In this document: piece by piece, positions 9,068 through 56,715 of the stretch
How the letters are laid out: each line of letters opens with the position of its first letter
Position numbering within the stretch: the first letter of the stretch is position 1
Sequence record: PQ724394.1
Strand: one strand, 5' to 3'
Length of the DNA stretch: 64,000 nucleotides
Origin: a phage
Position numbers and translations under genes: made by a program
The notes under the pieces: model-generated
Database searches by the model: none
The model's input: only the letters and a program-made list of their open reading frames with translations
What the model was told of the DNA's origin: nothing

Positions 9068-10232
9068 CTAAATCCATCTCTTCTAAATCGTTTTCAATAT
9101 CTGCAGCACTTTGAGCGTCACCACTCAATTTAACTGCAACATTCTTAGAGACACGAGAGTTAATAAGGTCGTTCACGGCATCATCGACTTCTTTAATAGA
9201 ATTAATTGCACCAAGCTTATACTTATTCTCGATTGCTTCACGGAACGGGGCATGTTTAAACAGCGGTCCCCAGAACTCGACACAATCGGTAGCTTTAGCA
9301 CGCCATGATTTTTCTTCTTGAACCATTTCACCCGTGGTTTCATCAAGGAATGCACGATTATACCAGCCGGCTTTAGGTTTCACGACAAAGCCAATATCAG
9401 TAGCCATTTCGAGCAGACCACTAAATGGGTCGATACCACCTTCAAAGTTCACAGTAATTGGGAACGTTGATTTCTCTTTAACAGTACGAGATTTTTCGGC
9501 CTTCAGGGTGAAGTCATAACCAGTGAGCTCGGTACCATCTTTAACCTGACGTTTAGAGATAAAGAACACAGTAGAAGCAGAGTACAGAATACCAGTACCA
9601 CCACCCATAATCTCTTTAGGATACATTCCACCAATTTCCATAGCCGTATGGTTAATTGCTACACAAGGAATATCCTTGATAGTCAGATAAGGTGTTACGA
9701 TACGGAACAGAGATTTCAGAGACTTAGCTCGAGTCATATCACCTACAACTTTCTCGTTCAAAGCATCTTCGGTTTCTTTCTTAGAAGCGGTGTTACCGAT
9801 GGAGTCGATAAAGATAATAACCTTTTCGCCACGAGTAATTTCTTCTAATTGGTTGGTCATGTCAACCTTCAGTTGTTCGACTGACTGGATTGGCGTATGA
9901 ACCACACGTTCCAGGTCAACACCCATTGAACGGAAATAAGATTCTGAAGCACCGAACTCAGAGTCATAGAACAAGCAAATTGCGTCTGGATATTTCTTCA
10001 TATATGCCGCAACCATAGTTAATCCAAACAACGTTTTAAAGTGTTTAGACGGTGCAGCAAAGATTGTCAAACCTGATTGTAAGCCTGCATTCAACGCACC
10101 ACCCAATGCAATATTAAGCATAGGAATACGAGTAGGAACTTCGTCACGACCATTAAACAATTTAGATTTGGTCAGATCGGCAGTCATTTTAGAAGTAGAA
10201 GCTTTAATCAAACGGGATTTTAAATCGGACAT
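9060..10232 (-). CDS. uvsX: UvsX recombinase (RecA-like)
   Basis: 390 aa; N-terminus MSDLKSRLIKASTSK nearly identical to T4 UvsX. Confidence 0.95.
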   Translation of the reverse strand: MSDLKSRLIKASTSKMTADLTKSKLFNGRDEVPTRIPMLNIALGGALNAGLQSGLTIFAAPSKHFKTLFGLTMVAAYMKKYPDAICLFYDSEFGASESYFRSMGVDLERVVHTPIQSVEQLKVDMTNQLEEITRGEKVIIFIDSIGNTASKKETEDALNEKVVGDMTRAKSLKSLFRIVTPYLTIKDIPCVAINHTAMEIGGMYPKEIMGGGTGILYSASTVFFISKRQVKDGTELTGYDFTLKAEKSRTVKEKSTFPITVNFEGGIDPFSGLLEMATDIGFVVKPKAGWYNRAFLDETTGEMVQEEKSWRAKATDCVEFWGPLFKHAPFREAIENKYKLGAINSIKEVDDAVNDLINSRVSKNVAVKLSGDAQSAADIENDLEEMDLDD

Positions 10233-35512: not shown

Positions 35513-35854
35513 CTAATAAAAACTTTTTTCACCGGCTTGCCCACTAAACCATGCGGATTGGGTGTTCTCTTTCCGTTGGTGTTCAATACGAATACGGTAT
35601 TCGTTCCTGATGGCGTAGAGTTCATCCCTGAAGTCGCCTGCCAACTTAACCTGCTTACGGTCTAGATTTATTAAGGCTTGGGTCTTCGCTGCCAAGAGCA
35701 GTCTCCTGTAGTCTCCTTCTTCACAATCGGTTTTATAAACTCTATTGGTATATCCGTCGATAACTTCCTTATCATAGTCCTCGACGGACCGTTTCATGGC
35801 TTTGGAAAAAGTCTGACCTGCATTAAAAAGATTGTAAATAAATTGTTCGAACAT
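35513..35854 (-). CDS. hypothetical protein (113 aa)
   Basis: ORF. Confidence 0.45.
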   Translation of the reverse strand: MFEQFIYNLFNAGQTFSKAMKRSVEDYDKEVIDGYTNRVYKTDCEEGDYRRLLLAAKTQALINLDRKQVKLAGDFRDELYAIRNEYRIRIEHQRKENTQSAWFSGQAGEKSFY

Positions 35855-35864
35855 AATTTCACCT

Positions 35865-36845
35865 TTATTTCAGAAGTGTAACTTCAGCGATTTCGCTCCA
35901 GTCATTTTTATCGGTGGCAATGAAGTCCGCCAGATAAAGAGCCGTACGCAATGATACGTTACGAAGACGAGATACATTAGCCTTCATCCATGCTAAAGCT
36001 TGATAAGTCTCAGCATCAGTCAGACCTCGGTTTTGCATCATATCAGTGGACAGGATAACGTCTTCAACACGAACCATAATCTCTTCGTTCGAGTGAACTC
36101 CGAGGTCCAAGTAAACTGAACGAGATACTAAAGCCTGGAGGTGCGGAGCAAGTTTAGTACCACGTTCTAATTCACGGTCAATATCAACGTTGGTGATGAA
36201 CACGATGGTGCCTTCGTATTCGAATTCTTTATCGATATTTTTATCATCGAGATAAGAACTTGAAGTGCTCCAGCACACCTTACGTTTCTCTCCTGTATCC
36301 AACGCCGCTTTAAGAAGGTTCAGGATATCCATGTCAGAGAATACATCAACATCATCAATAAGAAGAACACTATTAGGGCCGCGGTTATTCCAAAGCTGCT
36401 CGTAAAGACCGATTCCACTAATCTTTCCGTTGATTGATTTATATTCGATAGTTTCATTTTCGTGGGCATTTTGTAATGCTTTATCCAAAGAGTATGTTTT
36501 ACCAATACCTGCGGCACCGGAGATGATAAGGGAACGAATTTTACCATCGATGATTCCGTTAGTCATCATGTTCATTACTTTAAAACGTTTGTTGATGCGG
36601 TGTTTCATTTCTTCGGCGGATTCAGTAATCACCGCAGGAGCTTCGGCACCTTCCATTTCGATGTCACATTTGAACACCCATACACCACGTTCAACACCAT
36701 CAATCTGTACAAATACCTTACCATCACCGAGATGAGCTTCGGATTCATGAATTTTATTAGGGAACCAGGTTTTACCTGAACTCATGAACGTACCAGAGAT
36801 TTCATTACCACGATAGATACCTTTGTTGATTTTGATAGTTAACAT
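35865..36845 (-). CDS. AAA+/P-loop ATPase
   Basis: 326 aa; Walker A GAAGIGKT, Walker B LLIDDVD, sensor FITN. Confidence 0.6.
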   Translation of the reverse strand: MLTIKINKGIYRGNEISGTFMSSGKTWFPNKIHESEAHLGDGKVFVQIDGVERGVWVFKCDIEMEGAEAPAVITESAEEMKHRINKRFKVMNMMTNGIIDGKIRSLIISGAAGIGKTYSLDKALQNAHENETIEYKSINGKISGIGLYEQLWNNRGPNSVLLIDDVDVFSDMDILNLLKAALDTGEKRKVCWSTSSSYLDDKNIDKEFEYEGTIVFITNVDIDRELERGTKLAPHLQALVSRSVYLDLGVHSNEEIMVRVEDVILSTDMMQNRGLTDAETYQALAWMKANVSRLRNVSLRTALYLADFIATDKNDWSEIAEVTLLK

Positions 36846-36881
36846 TTTATTCTCCGTTTAACTCAGTAGATTTGATAGGTC

Positions 36882-36911
36882 CATAATAACATGCTCTACG
36901 AGAGTGTAAAC
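36882..36911 (-). promoter_or_regulatory. early promoter (variant cassette)
   Basis: GTTTAC at 36906-36911, variant spacer; upstream of AAA ATPase gene. Confidence 0.5.
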
Positions 36912-36930
36912 TCTTTTTTGCACTAAACCC

Positions 36931-36953
36931 AAAAAAGGACCCCGAAGGGTCCT
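36931..36953 (-). terminator. intrinsic terminator
   Basis: GGACCC-TTCG-GGGTCC hairpin plus T6 run. Confidence 0.7.
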
Positions 36954-36961
36954 AAATTTAG

Positions 36962-37972
36962 TTAACGGTAATAAGAGTTGTGGTTGTCAAGGTACACCTC
37001 TTCGACGAACTTGTCCCAGAACTTCATGTCCACCTTCGCAGGCATACCATTCTTAGCTGCCTGGATGGCCAGAACTTCAACTAAATCGACAGTATCTTCA
37101 AGAAGTTCTTGAACTTCTTTAAATGGTAATTCACCAGCTTTAATCAGCTTAATGATAGAGGCTTCACGCAATGGGAATACCAAGTCACCAGTTTGGTAGA
37201 TTTCCATCAATTGGTACCCGGCACGATAAGCATGGCTCAGAGCTTTCCAGTCAATACCTTCATTGGCTTCAGCCTTACGAGCACGTTCGCCATATTCGGC
37301 ATCGAGTTTATTCAGAGATTGCTTAAGCTCGACCAATGACAAAGTAGTTTGGTACTTACGTCCGAGGACAGTATAGAACGTTTGAGGACCTGTTTTCTCA
37401 TGGTTATGAAATACCCATTCGCAAAACTCGTTTTCAGGGAGCCTGTGCTTGATATCTTCTACCTTAGTCCGACGTAAACGATCCGGAATGCCTTCTTGAT
37501 AATCAACCCATTGTTCAGGAATCTGGTTAACAATTGCCAGTACACCACGCAGTGCAGCCAATCGAGAACCTTTAACACCATATTTAGAGGCTTGCTTACG
37601 GACGTACCCTAAATAGGCTTTCATGTTAGTTGTATAGAAACGCGAACGGTTATCTTGGATAAATTTCCATACATCAGGTAAATCAGATTTAACCACTAGT
37701 TCAGGTGGAGTGTGGAGCATATCCAGAGCAACGGTTTCGCCTTCAGCAGCCAGTTTAAAGAAATATTTCAGACTGTAAAGCTCATGGTCAACATCATCTT
37801 TAGTGTTTTTGGAAGCAGTGTTATTCGTATTCAGGTTGGTATGGTTCATTGCCGTACCTAACAGAATATCACGCGGATGCGGAACAAAGATTTCTTTAAA
37901 ATCGACATCAGATTCCGGAGTACTTGTTCCATAAAGATGGCTACCGAAGTAGCCTTTCATAACTGTTCTCAT
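36962..37972 (-). CDS. polymerase-beta-superfamily nucleotidyltransferase-like protein
   Basis: GSHLYGTSTPESDVDF (G-S-x11-D-x-D) motif; ATG at 37972 overlaps upstream stop; hairpin terminator downstream. Confidence 0.55.
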   Translation of the reverse strand: MRTVMKGYFGSHLYGTSTPESDVDFKEIFVPHPRDILLGTAMNHTNLNTNNTASKNTKDDVDHELYSLKYFFKLAAEGETVALDMLHTPPELVVKSDLPDVWKFIQDNRSRFYTTNMKAYLGYVRKQASKYGVKGSRLAALRGVLAIVNQIPEQWVDYQEGIPDRLRRTKVEDIKHRLPENEFCEWVFHNHEKTGPQTFYTVLGRKYQTTLSLVELKQSLNKLDAEYGERARKAEANEGIDWKALSHAYRAGYQLMEIYQTGDLVFPLREASIIKLIKAGELPFKEVQELLEDTVDLVEVLAIQAAKNGMPAKVDMKFWDKFVEEVYLDNHNSYYR

Positions 37973-38421
37973 TCTTTGTTCTCGAAGTGAATTACAGGAC
38001 ACATCTTAGATTTACGAGCTTTAATGTATTGGACGACGATATTTTCTTTAATTTCCTTTCCTTCACGTTTAGCTTTAATTCGTTCCCATTCCTTTTCTTC
38101 TCTACGGGCATCATACCATGCATGTAAATTCATCGCACCGAATGCTAAACCGATGGATAGCGCAATAATAAGAGCTATTGCAGTCAACCCTAAAACAAAC
38201 CCGAGGCTCAACAGAACGGGAGTACTTAATACAAAGAAATGCTCTAATACACCAGCGCCTGCAACAGTTAATCCAAAAAGCGTACTACCTACAACAACAG
38301 CACAAGCAAAACAAGCCCAAATCATTTTCCAGAAATAAGCACACAAAGAGTGCGGTCGAGAATGACTGTCATAAAAACGGTCGTGTAATTTAACGTGCCA
38401 AGAGTTTGAATTGATAATCAT
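37969..38421 (-). CDS. hypothetical membrane protein (150 aa)
   Basis: Several hydrophobic helices. Confidence 0.5.
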   Translation of the reverse strand: MIINSNSWHVKLHDRFYDSHSRPHSLCAYFWKMIWACFACAVVVGSTLFGLTVAGAGVLEHFFVLSTPVLLSLGFVLGLTAIALIIALSIGLAFGAMNLHAWYDARREEKEWERIKAKREGKEIKENIVVQYIKARKSKMCPVIHFENKE

Positions 38422-38431
38422 AATATTTTCC

Positions 38432-38992
38432 TTAAGGGTTCATAGTTGGGATAACAGAGTTCAGATAAGAGACTAAAACTTTTAGCTCGTCTTTAGTAAA
38501 TACCACTTCATTTTCACCGTCGTGTCTTTGGGTCAAGGATAGCAAATCACGACCCTGGTGTTGATACACGGATAATTCGGTATCATAATCCAGTTCTTCT
38601 TCATCACCTTCAAATGTTTCACTAGAACGAATCACCGCATCTTGACCTGGAACTTTCCATTCAACTTCAGGCTTGCATTCTTCCTGGAACAGTTTAAAAA
38701 TACATTTAAAGAAATTACTAGAATTCCTAATGCTTAGACATTCCGTATCAGTTTCGATATTAAATCCGTCTTCATTTTTATAAATCTGGGCCCATACATC
38801 GTCGTTAATATCAAACGATGCTCTATGGCGTCCATCAAGATACCCATCTTTATCCAAAACCTTTAAATCATAAAGTGGTTTAATATCTTGGATAGTTAGT
38901 ACGATTTTATCGTCTTCTTGGCAAATCTCAATAGCATTATCAACTACTTCAGCGGTCAGTTCACCAAACAGCTCAGATGTTTCGATAATCAT
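38432..38992 (-). CDS. hypothetical acidic protein (186 aa)
   Basis: ORF. Confidence 0.5.
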   Translation of the reverse strand: MIIETSELFGELTAEVVDNAIEICQEDDKIVLTIQDIKPLYDLKVLDKDGYLDGRHRASFDINDDVWAQIYKNEDGFNIETDTECLSIRNSSNFFKCIFKLFQEECKPEVEWKVPGQDAVIRSSETFEGDEEELDYDTELSVYQHQGRDLLSLTQRHDGENEVVFTKDELKVLVSYLNSVIPTMNP

Positions 38993-56189: not shown

Positions 56190-56480
56190 TCGGGGTTCCA
56201 CCTGCTAGGCAAGTGTTTGTACGAAACGCCGGGATTCGAACCCGGTTATTAAGCAGTTGACGCTACTCAATATTTTTTTAAAAGGCCATATCTCGACCAT
56301 ATCCGAACGTTCCGTCAAAAACGCTACTCGGCTTACGGCAAAGATATTTCCTCGAATCGATAATTCGATGCGCCGTTTCAGCTGTGATAGTAAAGAACCA
56401 GAACACAGTAAAACTGTGGGAGGAACTATACTCCAGGGAACTTCAGTCCGACGACTTACCGGTAGCGACCCGGTTTCTTG
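56190..56480 (-). ncRNA. possible small stable RNA(s) with tRNA-like T-arm, adjacent to tRNA cluster
   Basis: CCGGG-TTCGAAT-CCCGG T-arm-like element at 56229-56245 without foldable anticodon or D arms; several palindromes; analogous position to T4 stable RNAs C and D. Confidence 0.3.
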
Positions 56481-56482
56481 TT

Positions 56483-56558
56483 TGGTCGAGACAGTAGGGA
56501 TCGAACCTACGACCCAGGACTTAGAAGGTCCTTGCTCTTCCTTCTGAGCTATGCCTCG
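56483..56558 (-). tRNA. tRNA-Arg (anticodon TCT)
   Basis: Hand-folded cloverleaf: 7-bp acceptor stem, D arm GCTC/GAGC, anticodon loop CTTCTAA, T arm GTAGG-TTCGATC-CCTAC, CCA encoded. Confidence 0.8.
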
Positions 56559-56562
56559 TATT

Positions 56563-56637
56563 TGGCGGACATGCATGGATTCGAACCATGGACCAATTGA
56601 TTAACAGTCAACTGCTCTACCGCTGAGCTACACATCC
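56563..56637 (-). tRNA. tRNA-Asn (anticodon GTT)
   Basis: Hand-folded cloverleaf: acceptor stem with two G-U pairs, D arm GCTC/GAGC, anticodon loop CTGTTAA, T arm CATGG-TTCGAAT-CCATG, CCA encoded. Confidence 0.75.
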
Positions 56638-56641
56638 GAAT

Positions 56642-56715
56642 TGGTGGCCCTGGGTGGAATCGAACCACCATCCAGCGATTATGAGTCGCTCGCTTGACCG
56701 TCCAGCTACAGGGCC
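56642..56715 (-). tRNA. tRNA-Met or Ile-lysidine (anticodon CAT)
   Basis: Hand-folded cloverleaf: perfect 7-bp acceptor stem, anticodon loop CTCATAA, T arm GGTGG-TTCGATT-CCACC, CCA encoded. Confidence 0.75.

Follow-up and report, generated by a model that had tools for sequence, protein, structure and literature searches.

The RlaP nucleotidyltransferases, a family that Burroughs and Aravind are said to have defined in a 2016 study, include the assayed bacterial homologues of one of the two genes considered here, nrdC.11, which lies beside the ATPase gene nrdC.10 on a stretch of phage DNA analysed over its whole length of 64,000 nucleotides (record PQ724394.1; hereafter the window). Both biochemistry and structure, including a crystal structure of PfRlaP, are available for RlaP from two Pseudomonas species, P. 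fluorescens and P. aeruginosa, through a December 2025 preprint by Carruthers, Fatma and Huang (bioRxiv 10.64898/2025.12.29.696909). These enzymes label RNA, and neither DNA nor protein; they need a 3'-OH, prefer Mn2+, and add one or two nucleoside monophosphates, deoxynucleoside monophosphates being usable as well. On a mimic of cleaved tRNA they favour the 5' half, with its broken end, over the acceptor 3' end, and when a tRNA short of one nucleotide in its anticodon loop was repaired, RlaP raised its aminoacylation. The same work proposes that RlaP counters nucleases whose cut is followed by trimming, RloC and PaOrf2 being examples, finds the 3'-OH product to fit ligases that use a 5'-phosphate, such as Rnl1, and puts T4 NrdC.11 in RlaP cluster 5, 'of unknown function' (bioRxiv 10.64898/2025.12.29.696909). 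An anti-RloC-type role for phage RlaP had been predicted earlier by Iyer et al. 2021 (PMC7824862), citing Burroughs and Aravind 2016, and the 2008 paper on RloC (PMC2610378) had argued that removal of the wobble nucleotide might defeat repair by T4 Pnkp and Rnl1.

The window is that of a JS98/JS10-like T-even phage, and its two open reading frames (ORFs) are the orthologues of T4 nrdC.11 and nrdC.10, genes that have long been catalogued and are in that sense already known. Both lie on the minus strand. The first (37972..36962), assigned from the ORF listing, Pfam, PHROG and the annotation of relatives, encodes a protein of 336 amino acids whose N-terminal residues are MRTVMKGYFGSHLYGTSTPESDVDF; the second (36845..35865), assigned from the ORF listing and its motifs, encodes an AAA+ ATPase of 326 amino acids. 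Over 3 kb, the region shares 91-97% DNA identity with JS98/JS10-type T-even phages (genus Dhakavirus), the top match being Escherichia phage Esco_phi_B-01. Dhakavirus annotation gives both ORFs the names nrdC.11 and nrdC.10 and sites them between nrdC and tk; the label nrdC.11 is carried by the orthologues in the JS10, JS98, IME08, Bp7 and T4 records, and synteny with the annotated phage JS10 bears out the nrdC-tk location that an earlier note on this DNA had given. T4 carries the same gene pair, its proteins being about 82% (NrdC.11, NP_049709) and about 78% (NrdC.10, NP_049708) identical to those of the window. Gene order, strand, the spacer of about 115 bp, the terminator hairpin and the promoter all match between the window and the T4, JS98, JS10 and IME08 orthologues, and sequence divergence is the sole difference apart from spacer length, which reaches 423 bp in JS10 as opposed to 116 bp in the window. 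A comparative paper of 2006 (PMC1524935) had already reported an AAA ATPase match for nrdC.10, present in just three of six T4-like phages, and a COG3541 nucleotidyltransferase match for nrdC.11. In GenBank and UniRef, homologues of both proteins are often named 'thioredoxin', and a few are named 'HNH homing endonuclease', 'glutaredoxin' or 'processivity clamp loader'; such names seem to be erroneous annotation, carried over from the prefix nrdC in the gene names or from adjacent genes.

The earlier note had allowed that the pair might turn out to be ordinary conserved nrdC-region genes with a structural role; the former is the case, and no structural role is known for them. Its observation is confirmed, and its interpretation is supported in part. 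The account that we favour, with somewhat more confidence than doubt, is that the window holds the nrdC.11 and nrdC.10 orthologues, that the RlaP protein would add one or two nucleotides to tRNA breaks before these are sealed, and that NrdC.10 acts independently of it. In itself this adds little to the record, as the genes are catalogued, the domain calls date from 2006, and both the RlaP assignment and the predicted anti-RloC role are in the literature.

Family and catalytic residues of NrdC.11

By its sequence, NrdC.11 is a nucleotidyltransferase of the RlaP family with a Pol-beta fold. The Pfam model for that family (PF10127, 'RNA repair pathway DNA polymerase beta family') gives it 47.9 bits, the gathering score being 23 (E 1.8e-12), the same model is matched by all 38 of the diverse relatives tested, and PHROG 388, 'nucleotidyltransferase', matches with an E value of 1.9e-131. 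Among the options for the transferase that the earlier note had listed, it is RNA repair that these matches sustain. When 1.84 billion cluster representatives were searched exhaustively, 3302 relatives were returned at E up to 1e-3, and the conservation of individual residues was scored over 147 full-length cluster representatives.

The N-terminal catalytic core bears the motif GSHLYGTSTPESDVDF, which comprises G10, S11, D22, V23 and D24 with the spacing G-S-x10-D-V-D; the signature had been described before with eleven intervening residues, and while the motif itself stands, the spacing is ten. G10, D22 and D24 are conserved in 100% of the representatives, S11 in 99%, D60 in 97%, and D62 and D84 in 95% each. 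Since these residues are conserved across the full-length representatives, the catalytic carboxylates are, as far as the alignment tells, intact, and D60, D62 and D84 are candidates for the third of them. The core, made up of G10, S11, D22, D24 and D60/D62/D84, is followed by a predicted C-terminal helical domain in which Y131, R230, D241, K243, H247, R250 and P267 are near invariant. In RlaP such a domain shapes, together with the nucleotidyltransferase domain, a cleft for RNA and NTP. An AlphaFold2 model built on an alignment of 20 sequences reached a predicted local distance difference test score (pLDDT) of 69 overall, with residues 64-336 predicted to be mainly helical at pLDDT 60-89. Comparison of this model with the PDB by Foldseek gave only noise (best E 0.31), and the result was discarded. 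Sequence and profile searches of the PDB gave no usable match for either NrdC.11 or NrdC.10, and scans of both proteins with NCBIfam and PADLOC gave P-loop or motif-level matches only, all of them below threshold.

A proposed place for NrdC.11 in tRNA repair

The genomic surroundings of NrdC.11 relatives, taken together with the assayed bacterial homologues, are what lead us to a mechanism. Full-length relatives at 34-53% identity were gathered at 80 bacterial and archaeal loci, 79 of them with an intact ORF, and at 16 of these 79 an RNA-repair gene lies within 3.5 kb of the RlaP gene, usually on the same strand. The genes found beside cellular RlaP are those for RtcB, bacterial Pnkp with a ligase domain, Hen1, T4-type Pnkp and Rnl1-type ligase, and Ro60/TROVE recurs near these loci as well. 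By a rough reckoning, with RNA-repair genes occurring about once per genome, chance linkage would be expected at well under 1% of loci. At three loci (L084, L140 and L145) T4-type Pnkp, an Rnl1-type ligase and RlaP stand in one cluster. Among viruses, where a reciprocal scan was made and 80 loci were kept, RtcB, Pnkp or Rnl is encoded within 10 kb at eight of the 24 most distant loci. The JS10 genome encodes pseT, rnlA and stp, and the pseT-rnlA stretch is present in the genome closest to the window (97.9% identity).

One of the three clusters deserves description in its own right. On a 4-kb contig from a Bathyarchaeota metagenome-assembled genome (L084), RlaP occupies positions 80-994 at 43% identity to NrdC.11, and on the same strand, downstream of it, come a T4-type Pnkp at 373 bp and an Rnl1-type RNA ligase at 1.7 kb. 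The three form a compact cluster to heal, fill and seal, and the short contig might be viral.

We therefore propose, from the homologues and the gene linkage, that NrdC.11 most likely has an RNA 3'-end activity, a tRNA substrate and a role in counter-defence. With nucleoside triphosphates (NTPs) and Mn2+, the enzyme would extend the 3'-OH of broken RNA by one or two nucleotides without a template, its likeliest substrate being the 5' half of a tRNA cleaved in the anticodon loop. After this fill-in the phage Pnkp (pseT) and RNA ligase 1 (rnlA) would rebuild a full-length tRNA, and the tRNA would be rescued even where the host anticodon nuclease had also excised a nucleotide, in the manner of RloC. 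Restoration of nucleotides ahead of sealing by Pnkp and Rnl1 is a mechanism already proposed in print. Should excised nucleotides indeed be restored by NrdC.11, the textbook T4 pathway of tRNA healing and sealing would gain a third enzyme, and the action of NrdC.11 would answer the question raised in 2008, namely whether wobble excision by RloC really defeats phage repair.

Several considerations weigh against this account. The RlaP enzymes that were assayed belong to cluster 1a, whereas T4 NrdC.11 falls in cluster 5 (bioRxiv 10.64898/2025.12.29.696909). Within the structural model, the catalytic core at residues 1-63 reaches a pLDDT of only 30-40, which leaves the geometry of the acidic residues poorly modelled. 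Untemplated addition would restore the right nucleotide only part of the time (bioRxiv 10.64898/2025.12.29.696909). The T4 block from nrdC.11 to mobD.3 can be deleted, the phage being viable on laboratory hosts (PMC9825161), which fits an accessory role and lends no positive support. Furthermore, nrdC.11 is not beside pseT or rnlA, the distance in JS10 being about 87 kb. Last, and bearing on the independence of NrdC.10, the order of nrdC.11 followed by nrdC.10 survives about 50% divergence of the proteins between the T4-like phages of enterobacteria and those of Acinetobacter, and so the two proteins may cooperate within the T4-like clade.

The alternative that fares best keeps the chemistry and changes the substrate: NrdC.11 could act on RNA 3' ends outside anticodon-loop repair, either mending the 3'-CCA of tRNA or tailing host or phage RNA in the course of takeover. 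In total RNA, the species labelled by bacterial RlaP include tRNA halves but also RNAs the size of rRNA and of full-length tRNA, and the enzyme shows little NTP specificity; both behaviours would suit such a role, as would the separation of T-even nrdC.11 from pseT and rnlA. That RlaP, given a cleaved-tRNA mimic, favours the broken 3' end above the acceptor 3' end argues the other way, and the repeated linkage of RlaP relatives to ligases and end-healing enzymes points to a step ahead of ligation. We hold this alternative to be fairly unlikely, with a confidence well below that given to anticodon-loop repair.

The intergenic region and the ATPase NrdC.10

Transcription of the pair runs along the minus strand from nrdC.11 through a terminator and then a promoter into nrdC.10. 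The terminator (36930..36953, minus strand), recognised by its sequence, fold energy and conservation, is of the intrinsic type, with a 7-bp stem, a UUCG tetraloop and a U6 tail; it reads AGGACCC-UUCG-GGGUCCU (36953..36936) followed by UUUUUU, and its fold energy of -16 kcal/mol (z = -2.9) was equalled by none of 200 shuffles. A strong terminator after the transferase gene had been claimed before, and the hairpin sustains this, with the clarification that it sits between the two genes. Behind it lies a sigma-70 or T4-early-type promoter for nrdC.10 (36883..36910, minus strand), called from its consensus match and conservation, in which TTTACA and TG-TTATTAT are separated by a 16-nt spacer; ten of twelve consensus positions agree, and the -10 element is extended (TG present; hexamer TATTAT). 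A ribosome-binding site, GGAGA, precedes the nrdC.10 ATG at 36845.

An alignment of the spacer took in T4 and three relatives besides the window. Conserved in T4, VR5 and other T-even phages are the UUCG hairpin, the run of T residues and the promoter, with its GTTTACA -35 and extended -10, and one position of the terminator stem is C-G, G-C or A-T depending on the phage, which constitutes a set of compensatory changes. From this conservation it follows that, in T4 as in the window phage, nrdC.10 is served by an early-type promoter of its own, placed behind a terminator. The two genes are thus adjacent early genes in separate transcription units within the nrdC-tk accessory region of T-even phages.

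The length of the spacer (36846-36961) is 116 bp in the window, 114 bp in T4 and 306-2284 bp in other T4-like phages. With a range of 112-2284 bp, it is an insertion hot spot.

Linkage was tested at 80 viral loci with a NrdC.10 relative, over a 10-kb range and by tblastn and profile hidden Markov models. At about 41 of the 80, in enterobacterial and Acinetobacter T4-like phages, nrdC.11 lies upstream of nrdC.10 by 0.1-2.3 kb. NrdC.11 was not found within 10 kb of NrdC.10 in the Aeromonas T4-likes and KVP40-likes, and it was absent over the same distance at 29 of the 30 loci where NrdC.10 is at most 41% identical. NrdC.10 was in its turn absent within 10 kb at 44 of the 80 viral NrdC.11 loci, two of them at 90% identity, and on three contigs of Aeromonas phages the two genes are separated by roughly 59-110 kb. 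None of the 79 cellular loci has a NrdC.10-like gene near RlaP, and phage records with a NrdC.11 relative number 1619, as against 1312 with a NrdC.10 relative.

These observations bear upon the proposal, made in the earlier note, that ATPase and nucleotidyltransferase form one two-component module for anti-defence or end modification, with the AAA+ protein, for example, extracting or presenting substrates. Adjacency on one strand, with nrdC.11 upstream in 36-41 T4-like loci of enterobacterial and Acinetobacter phages, is what such a module would predict; the linked loci reach down to about 51-57% identity at spacers of about 0.1-2.3 kb, and both are early-region genes. The proposal nonetheless fails because a conserved terminator and a separate promoter stand between the genes and because each gene occurs widely without the other, as in the Aeromonas and KVP40-like phages, the distant NrdC.10 loci, the 44 NrdC.11 loci and the phages with more than 59 kb between the two; the spacer as an insertion hot spot, the unpaired cellular loci and the unequal record counts speak against it as well. 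A module, with NrdC.10 as the dedicated partner of the transferase, is accordingly not supported, and we consider it improbable. We read the adjacency seen in T-even phages as, most plausibly, synteny inherited within an accessory region.

Equally improbable, in our estimation, is a clade-restricted arrangement in which NrdC.10 was recruited as a helper of NrdC.11 in the T-even (Tevenvirinae) phages. NrdC.10 could here, for example, pull cleaved tRNA off the anticodon nuclease or the ribosome and deliver it to NrdC.11, Pnkp and Rnl1. If true, this would explain why the gene order persists over such protein divergence, and the pair would be a clade-specific extension of classic T4 tRNA repair directed against RloC-like nucleotide-excising nucleases.

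NrdC.10 itself has the features of a genuine AAA+ ATPase that is probably active. The P-loop and acidic motifs reported earlier, GAAGIGKT and LLIDDVD, were found as described, as was the promoter of its own: Walker A is SGAAGIGKT (residues 109-117) with K116, and Walker B is LLIDDVD (161-167) with D164/D165, while N219 serves as sensor 1. A beta domain (1-64) at the N terminus is followed by an alpha/beta core of the AAA+ type (about 77-247) and then by a helical lid (253-324); a conserved insertion with R188 and W192 precedes sensor 1, and R242 is the candidate arginine finger. Invariant over 30 homologues are G110, G113, G115, K116, T117, D164, D165 and N219, together with R242, R295/R300 and the insertion residues R188 and W192, so that Walker A and B, sensor 1, conserved arginines, core and helical lid, the features of the superfamily, are all found. 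The structure model (pLDDT 89) shows a generic AAA+ fold. In the Pfam scan no AAA model reached its threshold, and PHROG 1250, to which NrdC.10 belongs, is of unknown function.

As to its place among AAA+ proteins, identities to MoxR/NorQ/CbbQ, MCM, NtrC, Hda/DnaA, Cdc6/ORC, RFC and MuB are all 10-18%, with no clade outstanding. The N-terminal beta domain is specific to T4-like phages, and with distant homologues the alignment starts only near residue 75. A search of viral structures in BFVD returned only uncharacterised phage AAA+ proteins. NrdC.10 is probably an ATP-driven oligomeric remodeller or loader with a nucleic-acid or protein substrate. Near its distant homologues a UvsW-like helicase occurs in eight loci and a PF09414 RNA ligase in one lineage of six near-identical contigs; these loci show no general conserved neighbour and no general link to RNA repair.

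The lineage just mentioned, six viral contigs (L076-L081), carries the most distant NrdC.10-like ATPase, at 26% identity, near locus position 10000. Flanking it are proteins built of repeated YWYLNGxxHREDGPAIE units, which resemble MORN-type repeats, and the RNA ligase lies about 1.8 kb downstream.

Remaining alternatives, neighbouring features and known enzymes

Two further classes of nucleotidyltransferase had been put forward for NrdC.11. MNT (MntA-type) antitoxins are small single-domain proteins of about 100-150 amino acids partnered by a HEPN toxin gene. On this reading NrdC.11 would neutralise a toxin of the HEPN type, whether as an adenylyltransferase antitoxin or by AMPylating protein. 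It has in common with them the minimal G-S...D-x-D motif, and two models match weakly: NCBIfam MntA (NF047752) at 15.7 bits against a cut-off of 60 (E 0.01; residues 8-25, a 17-residue motif) and the generic Pfam NTP_transf_2 at 15.1 bits against 21 (17-20 residues). Both matches, however, fall below the cut-off and are confined to the motif; NrdC.11, at 336 amino acids, is roughly three times longer than these antitoxins and has an RlaP-specific C-terminal domain; no HEPN partner adjoins nrdC.11, whose neighbours encode a membrane protein and the AAA+ ATPase; and assayed RlaP enzymes leave proteins unlabelled. We regard an antitoxin as very unlikely. Least likely of all is a cGAS/DncV-like enzyme producing or imitating cyclic-nucleotide signals, for signalling or as a decoy, which shares with NrdC.11 only the Pol-beta-fold superfamily and was rejected on profile scores and gene context, for the protein's family is RlaP, no CD-NTase, SMODS or Mab-21 was matched in Pfam at E up to 1, and no Cdn in PADLOC.

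Upstream of nrdC.11 lies an ORF for a predicted membrane protein of 150 amino acids (37969-38421, minus strand; PHROG 944, 'membrane protein', in the host-takeover/moron category), a homologue of which, at 25-93% identity, stands upstream of nrdC.11 in most of the T4-like loci examined. Its TGA overlaps the nrdC.11 ATG as ATGA, and as a consequence of this overlap the two are probably translationally coupled. Further upstream is a mobD.1-like ORF (38432-38992, minus strand) with matches to Pfam T4_y05I_N and T4_y05I_C ('y05I-like putative transcription factor' domains). On the other side, an ORF of 113 amino acids (35513-35854, minus strand; Pfam DUF7203, PHROG 1931), with homologues in close relatives only, starts 10 nt past the nrdC.10 stop and is probably co-transcribed with nrdC.10.

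Elsewhere in the window, ARAGORN calls a 97-nt 'tRNA-Phe (anticodon aaa)' (56219-56315, minus strand) beside three good tRNA genes at 56486-56715 (Arg-TCT, Asn-GTT and Met-CAT). The Rfam tRNA model gives no match to the 97-nt element even at E up to 1; either the call is false, or the element is a stable RNA that resembles tRNA.

Among known enzymes, NrdC.11 may be compared with two groups. The CCA-adding and other template-independent RNA 3'-end nucleotidyltransferases resemble RlaP in having a Pol-beta-fold core and in adding to an RNA 3'-OH; unlike them, assayed RlaP adds only one or two nucleotides with little base specificity, and NrdC.11 has no sequence match to those families in Pfam. 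With the Pseudomonas RlaP enzymes NrdC.11 shares the Pfam family and an N-terminal Pol-beta nucleotidyltransferase core with conserved aspartates, joined to a C-terminal helical domain that in NrdC.11 is predicted, and links to RtcB, Pnkp or Rnl genes recur among NrdC.11 relatives too. NrdC.11 differs from them in being phage-encoded, in its distance from any ligase gene and in its cluster, and its likely partner would be the 5'-phosphate ligase Rnl1 in place of RtcB.

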